The notes under the pieces are model-generated. The model saw only the letters and a program-made list of their open reading frames with translations. It was not told the origin of the DNA and did not search any database. DNA of 247 nucleotides from a phage, in the sequence record BH153128.1, one strand, 5' to 3'. A program made the translations under genes and the position numbers. Each line of letters starts with the position of its first letter. Within the stretch, counting starts at the first letter, position 1. This document shows, piece by piece, positions 2-247 of this stretch.

Positions 2-199
2 AAGGAAAGTTTTTTTATTAGAGGAACGGTGGTTAATATCTGCTGGAGTAAAGGCGAAGGAATCCGTAGCTTTTGCGTAATTGACGATGATAATAACCTG
101 TATGTGATTCGCTATCATAATAATTCTGTGTTGGTTTATACCGACAATTCACGAGAATTGTATACTCTTGAATTTGTTAAGCGATCTGATTGCGACTGA
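2..199 (+). CDS. 3' end of a protein-coding gene (5'-partial; start lies upstream of the window); hypothetical protein, C-terminal 65 aa
   Basis: Frame 2 is open from position 2 to a TGA stop at 197-199 (65 sense codons), while + frames 1 and 3 are interrupted repeatedly by stops. Translation: KESFFIRGTVVNICWSKGEGIRSFCVIDDDNNLYVIRYHNNSVLVYTDNSRELYTLEFVKRSDCD*. In DNA this AT-rich, a 65-codon stop-free run is unlikely by chance (rough estimate about 1% per frame). Third-codon-position GC is about 35% (23 of 65), in line with the bulk composition. I recognise no family or motif, so the product is left as hypothetical. Confidence 0.6.
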   Translation, partial: KESFFIRGTVVNICWSKGEGIRSFCVIDDDNNLYVIRYHNNSVLVYTDNSRELYTLEFVKRSDCD

Positions 200-214
200 T
201 TTGTTCGTGCTTAT

Positions 215-225
215 GAAGAAGATGG
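215..225 (+). promoter_or_regulatory. Candidate ribosome-binding region (purine-rich GAAGAAGATGG) for the downstream gene
   Basis: The purine-rich run GAAGAAG at 215-221 is the only Shine-Dalgarno-like element in the spacer. It is 14 nt from the ATG at 236 (long) but 8 nt from the alternative TTG at 230 (typical). The weaker GATGG at 221-225 is 10 nt from the ATG at 236. Match to AGGAGG is imperfect. Confidence 0.3.
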
Positions 226-235
226 CTGTTTGCGC

Positions 236-247
236 ATGAAACAGAAA
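236..247 (+). CDS. 5' end of a downstream protein-coding gene (3'-partial); hypothetical protein beginning MKQK
   Basis: ATG at 236-238 followed by AAA CAG AAA, running off the window end. It is in the same frame as the upstream CDS, and frame 2 has no stop between 200 and 247. An alternative in-frame TTG at 230-232 sits 8-9 nt downstream of the purine-rich stretch and could be the true start. Only 4 codons are visible, so coding status cannot be tested here. Confidence 0.35.

Follow-up and report, generated by a model that had tools for sequence, protein, structure and literature searches.

Does the stretch of phage DNA analyzed here (247 nucleotides in full; hereafter the window) carry the C-terminal domain of an unrecognized protein, or does its reading frame end for another reason? 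The question was raised by frame 2 of the + strand, which reads KESFFIRGTVVNICWSKGEGIRSFCVIDDDNNLYVIRYHNNSVLVYTDNSRELYTLEFVKRSDCD for 65 codons (translation KESFFIRG...KRSDCD) and then meets a TGA stop codon. A preliminary description had interpreted this frame as a C-terminal domain with three cysteines and beta-strand-like alternation that could be matched to no family. The 65-codon reading, the three cysteines (in NICW, SFCV, and SDCD), and a DDDNN patch are all present in the sequence as described. The length of the frame alone is not significant, because shuffling this AT-rich window (36.8% GC) produced an open run of at least 65 codons in one or more of the six frames in 13% of cases.

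The window was closest to coliphage RB49 (NC_005066; 97.2% nucleotide identity to RB49 34070-34317), and its approximately 58-59 matches among phage records were all Krischvirus, the RB49-like T4-type coliphages. We found no match to the window sequence among E. coli genomes or plasmids. In RB49, the window lies within RB49p055, a 178-amino-acid “hypothetical protein” encoded between nrdD and nrdG. The first frame 2 codon corresponds to K36 of RB49p055, so that the 65 amino acids described as a C-terminal domain are residues 36-100 of the longer protein. These 65 residues matched the phrog_14838 HMM over profile positions 36-102 of 180 (E=8.1e-41), and full-length RB49p055 matched it over positions 1-180 (E=1.4e-120). 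This PHROG, annotated as “unknown function,” was the sole family match found for the protein; no Pfam family matched at E<=1, NCBIfam gave no match, and no family of the anti-phage defense collection PADLOC-DB matched at E<=1. The view that the protein belongs to no recognizable family stands, apart from this PHROG. Sequence comparison places the window in the middle of a known, uncharacterized RB49-like early gene; it is not a C-terminal domain. Its reading frame is the same as that of the phrog_14838/RB49p055/phi1p055 family, whose full-length product of approximately 178-180 amino acids ends in HFHNV(L/Q)YRD(L/I). The window copy does not reach this end: its codon 101 is TGA, one base is lost 30 nt farther on, and the window stops short of the native C terminus. 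Coordinates of the features of the window are collected in Table 1.

Table 1. Features of the 247-nt window; positions count from its first nucleotide, and residues are those of the protein named
Feature	Position	Strand	Remark
Residues K36-D100 (RB49p055 numbering)	2..196	+	Central run of five beta-strands, N-terminal part; private T97S
T7 homopolymer inside the gene	10..16	+	T6 in several deposited genomes, with the ORF split in two annotated pieces
Adjacent-base transposition, AT vs TA in all relatives	184..185	+	ACT Thr to TCT Ser
TGA stop private to the window	197..199	+	Replaces CGA (Arg101)
In-frame continuation FVRAYEEDGC, RB49p055 residues 102-111	200..228	+	Identical to RB49
T-run, TTT vs TTTT in every relative	229..231	+	One base missing
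Adjacent-base transposition, CA vs AC in all close relatives	235..236	+	Private
AF2 strands of a full-length homolog within the window region			E39-50, E59-65, E70-76, E79-83, E88-98

We compared the window with seven aligned relatives (two RB49 records, phiS, Phi1, MIZ6, GEC-3S, and JSE). Positions 1-183 were identical to RB49 NC_005066, and all four differences fell within the last 64 of the 247 nt; unlike other members of phrog_14838, this copy combines there a TGA of its own with the loss of one base and two swapped dinucleotides. The stop was created by CT in place of the RB49 TC at 196-197, which is again a swap of adjacent bases, and RB49 itself is translated across this site as ...DCDRFVRAYEEDGCFATE.... 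With the T-run one base short, the frame is shifted and the last 16 nt (232-247) are out of frame. All seven aligned relatives have CGA at the site of the stop, as either GAT CGA or GAC CGA, and two IMG/VR contigs with the gene read GATCGA; CGA was thus present in 9/9 relatives read base by base. A 43-nt query spanning window positions 186-228 matched 55 phage records, none of them at 100%, and patterns bearing the stop had no match across IMG/VR, JGI metagenomes, or GTDB genomes. No recorded gene encodes the 65-amino-acid product. Because the stop occurs in this copy only, the apparent C-terminal domain is an artefact of this copy.

The gene itself is intact in relatives of the window. By tblastn, 59 phage records matched the full-length protein with a coverage of at least 80% in every case, and comparison of RB49-type sequences with JSE gave dN/dS of 0.22-0.28 at dS of approximately 0.65-0.8. 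Since homologs exist and dN/dS lies well below 1, frame 2 is coding; read from these sequences, the full-length gene is real, coding, and under purifying selection. The objection that the frame might not be conserved in related genomes, which had been named as an argument against coding, does not apply. The family is very small: among 5.8 billion proteins, it formed six clusters at 90% identity. When 1.84 billion representatives were searched exhaustively by HMM, only a single convincing distant member was gained, P0011 (165 amino acids, 28% identity, hhalign probability 96%). A profile that included P0011 found no members beyond the same seven clusters, and P0011 had no relatives in our phage collection or in IMG/VR. 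In metagenomic T4-type contigs, the P0011 gene lies directly after nrdD and before DUF7170-nrdG; since this is the same genomic place, we regard P0011 as a positional ortholog. All homologs examined were at the nrdD-nrdG locus, and the window, which is 97% identical to them, probably comes from there as well. The suggestion that this might be an accessory protein lacking homologs therefore stood in part: the protein is uncharacterized and is encoded in a plastic early region of T4-type genomes, but it has homologs in 59 phage genomes and seven clusters. The gene is already known in this sense, being catalogued as a PHROG of unknown function. We found no paper mentioning it; the one literature match to “ORF055c” concerned RB69 and was unrelated.

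Two natural or apparent variations in length occur within the gene. An in-frame 6-nt indel after window position 60 adds Thr-Gln behind KGEG and splits the window, RB49, Phi1, and phiS from GEC-3S, MIZ6, and JSE; this indel is a natural, frame-preserving length polymorphism. The other variation lies at the T7 run. In phiS and MIZ6 the run is T6 (around 1510-1516 in our loci L002 and L005), and ORF055 is annotated in each as two overlapping CDS. Further Krischvirus records behave likewise: MIZ2, MIZ3, and pEJ01 are annotated with a split gene or, as in MIZ2 and pEJ01, matched in two parts, and a 61-amino-acid frameshift product of the run exists as its own protein cluster (P0007). The T6 splits could represent homopolymer sequencing error or genuine slippage. 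The split genomes hint that ORF055 is dispensable, and this hint is to be read with the same proviso that the splits could be sequencing errors.

AlphaFold2 (AF2) gave confident all-beta models for both P0001 (pLDDT 83.9) and P0011 (pLDDT 89.6), with the same order of approximately 14 strands and one short helix. The beta-strand-like runs picked out in the preliminary description (LYVIRY, SVLVYT, and LYTLEFV) coincide with the predicted strands E70-76, E79-83, and E88-98 of a full-length homolog. The models are predicted to resemble an SH3-like small barrel of the Tudor/KOW/bL19-like type. A PDB sequence search returned no meaningful relative, and Foldseek against the PDB returned nothing at E<=0.001; its weak top matches were chains of Pol II-DSIF complexes, which we read as SPT5 and its KOW domains in tandem. 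Relative to SH3-like barrels in general (Tudor, KOW, bL19, the RNA-polymerase-interacting domains of CarD, Mfd, and UvrD, and Sm/Hfq), the protein has no sequence similarity, and the scores indicate no more than a generic fold. That the N- and C-terminal halves are internal duplicates of each other was considered and was not supported (hhalign probability 1.2%). Against viral models, Foldseek matched 17 uncharacterized proteins of approximately 170-200 amino acids, and the named matches came from T4-type phages of Klebsiella, Salmonella, Serratia, Citrobacter, Pectobacterium, and Aeromonas. A positional search for such structural relatives in the 25-50 kb stretch of KP15 found no nrdD or nrdG.

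A check of the gene neighborhood for defense, toxin, or surface-polysaccharide genes had been proposed, and the neighbors turned out instead to be the nucleotide-metabolism genes nrdD and nrdG. The order nrdD - ORF055 - (ORF054) - DUF7170 - nrdG was found in RB49, Phi1, GEC-3S, JSE, JK32, and the contig carrying the 28%-identical metagenomic ortholog. In RB49 (locus L001), nrdD is followed by an intrinsic terminator at 5799-5820, a perfect sigma-70 promoter (TTGACA-16-TATAAT) at 5837-5864, a Shine-Dalgarno sequence, and then the ORF. The P0011 gene (locus L008) has the same layout and a similar stem, with a stem-loop at 7899-7924 and TTGACA-16-TATAAT at 7939-7966, and the annotation of GEC-3S places a terminator and promoter at the same position. 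The terminator stem, GCCGATCC...GGGTCGGC, is nearly the same upstream of both orthologs. With stem and promoter nearly the same and proteins only 28% identical, the regulatory cassette is far better conserved than the gene it drives.

Several observations concern the neighbors themselves. The tiny DUF7170 ORF (50 amino acids in RB49; L001 7054-7206 and L008 8560-8667) directly precedes nrdG in both the Krischviruses and the distant metagenomic phage, has its own sigma-70-like promoter upstream, and overlaps nrdG in Krischviruses; a role as a small conserved nrdG partner or as an nrdG leader is conceivable. ORF054 (L001 6451-6978) encodes a 175-amino-acid phrog_8242 protein with no Pfam match and a CSCGHAGC cysteine/histidine patch. 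Because ORF054 is missing from the metagenomic locus L008, ORF054 and ORF055 are not an obligate pair. In JSE (L007 1-1297), nrdD is annotated at only 332 amino acids, with a homing endonuclease gene in front of it, and in phiS (L002 247-1293) a short nrdD of 349 amino acids is annotated, which suggests that nrdD is split or interrupted by an intron or homing endonuclease gene in some Krischviruses.

How the stop arose can be weighed from the lesions around it. The four private lesions span 53 nt and comprise three exact neighbor-base swaps and one homopolymer miscount; for four events placed uniformly, the probability of clustering in the last 64 nt is approximately 0.0045. Because neighbor swaps and a homopolymer miscount clustered in this way, we infer base-calling error toward the end of a read. 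The private stop is most likely a sequence error: the TGA would stem from faulty base calling or assembly where a read of RB49, or of a phage almost identical to it, was coming to its end. A private pseudogenized allele is less likely. Were the stop and frameshift real, the allele would yield only the N-terminal approximately 100 residues of ORF055, and such a product could fold, since the stop falls four residues past the last N-terminal strand (E88-98) and ahead of the C-terminal part in the AF2 model. Relative to the GAC CGA allele of other Krischviruses, the stop is also a single C-to-T transition and thus a plausible natural mutation, and a gene that is broken elsewhere, at the T7 run, in at least five deposited genomes would fit a dispensable one. 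However, all four lesions lie beside 183 nt identical to RB49, three of them are exact neighbor-base swaps relative to RB49, which is not a natural mutation spectrum, and none of the variants was present in any collection searched. Furthermore, the portion of the gene downstream of the stop is kept in 59/59 records. On this evidence, we consider a truncated or pseudogenized allele unlikely and a sequence error the preferred explanation of the stop.

The nature of the encoded protein allows other readings as well. The three cysteines might bind a metal or pair as disulfides and in this way mark out a Cys-dependent domain, and C49 (NICW) and C62 (SFCV) are indeed invariant in the six close clusters. 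The third cysteine (SDCD), however, is Asn in P0006, and P0011 lacks all three yet is modeled confidently with an unchanged order of strands; nor is there a CxxC or His partner pattern. A Cys-rich domain of the metal or disulfide type was rejected as the cysteines are not conserved across the family, and it appears very improbable; the cysteines that had been singled out are no conserved feature of the family. That the stretch DDDNNLYVIRYHNNSVLVYTD forms an NHL-type beta-propeller blade, making the protein a diverged NHL/propeller protein, appears more improbable still. An approximately 25-residue hairpin motif, D-x-NLYV-x4-N-x-VLV, resembles one blade of the NHL repeat (PF01436), the family profile matched the NHL-repeat proteins P0008 (E=3e-9, six stretches) and P0012 (E=5e-4) at positions 58-86 only, and a weak PDB match was to the propeller protein Drp35 (E=1.4). 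Unlike NHL-repeat proteins, ORF055 has one copy of the motif, has no Pfam match, and is not modeled as a propeller; we rejected this reading on the grounds that one motif of approximately 25 residues had been summed over the repeats of the targets. The gene order kept in five named phages and with a distant metagenomic ortholog would be accounted for if the protein assisted the anaerobic ribonucleotide reductase NrdD/NrdG, for instance in its assembly or regulation. Against such a role, the gene is set apart from nrdD by a terminator and a promoter of its own, and DUF7170-nrdG has another promoter in front of it. Furthermore, only 59 of 2254 nrdG-bearing phage records have the gene. In most T4-type genera the nrdD-nrdG interval is empty or holds a homing endonuclease, and in the Slopekvirus-like Klebsiella phage KM2 (L014 2011-4004) it is filled with six small ORFans unrelated to the ORF055 family, which marks the interval as an accessory-gene hot spot throughout T4-type genera. 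The nrdD gene has also been described as lying at a plastic site associated with promoter-early stem-loops (PeSLs; PMC2839356). Because the interval is plastic and the gene so sparsely distributed among nrdG-bearing records, a dedicated role with the anaerobic reductase is quite unlikely. We tentatively prefer the reading as an early all-beta binding protein.

Overall, we consider it very likely that the window comes from inside a gene of the ORF055 family, that its apparent C terminus is due to a copy-specific TGA, and that the family encodes a protein with a predicted all-beta fold. Because a terminator and a perfect sigma-70 promoter stand before the gene in RB49 and in the distant ortholog, unmodified host RNA polymerase probably transcribes ORF055 immediately upon infection. 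No signature of catalysis or metal binding is present in the protein. Tentatively, its product might bind a host protein or nucleic acid stoichiometrically, with no catalysis, and might serve as a non-essential host-takeover or adaptive factor. A more speculative idea, and one that we hold to be a long shot, is that the ORF055 family and the Foldseek-linked proteins constitute one fast-evolving early SH3/Tudor-like superfamily docking on a host machine, which could be RNA polymerase, bound in the manner of the Tudor-like domains of CarD, Mfd, or UvrD. If true, this superfamily would represent an undescribed host-takeover or counter-defense factor.

As a discovery, the window is of little importance, and an error in the sequence most likely accounts for the C-terminal end that drew attention to it. 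The family is one of many uncharacterized early ORFans of T4-type phages; since its fold is confidently predicted and an ortholog shares its genomic position, it lends itself to host-interaction screens, without being an exceptional choice. The case also carries a practical lesson: when a stop in a short window stands beside private changes, relatives should be compared before a domain boundary is deduced.

Among the closest known counterparts of this locus are the PeSL-ORFan cassettes of RB49 and phi1. In T4-like genomes including RB49, nearly 90% of novel ORFs were found among early and middle genes, and early promoters were predicted upstream of many of them (Nolan et al., PMC1524935). PeSLs of RB49 and phi1 were shown to be strong sigma-70 promoters and terminators, and nrdD was listed with the genes that have PeSLs associated with them (Arbiol et al. 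2010, PMC2839356). A cassette that is conserved beyond its gene, as we found upstream of ORF055, is as expected for PeSL elements. The cassettes tested in PMC2839356 were other ones, and here the PeSL lies outside the 247-nt window, its layout having been read from the relatives RB49 and L008 rather than from the window's own flanks. In sequence layout, the ORF055 cassette of these relatives nevertheless matches the published PeSL-ORFan type: an ORFan adjoining nrdD and placed behind a GC-rich stem-loop terminator and a strong sigma-70 promoter.
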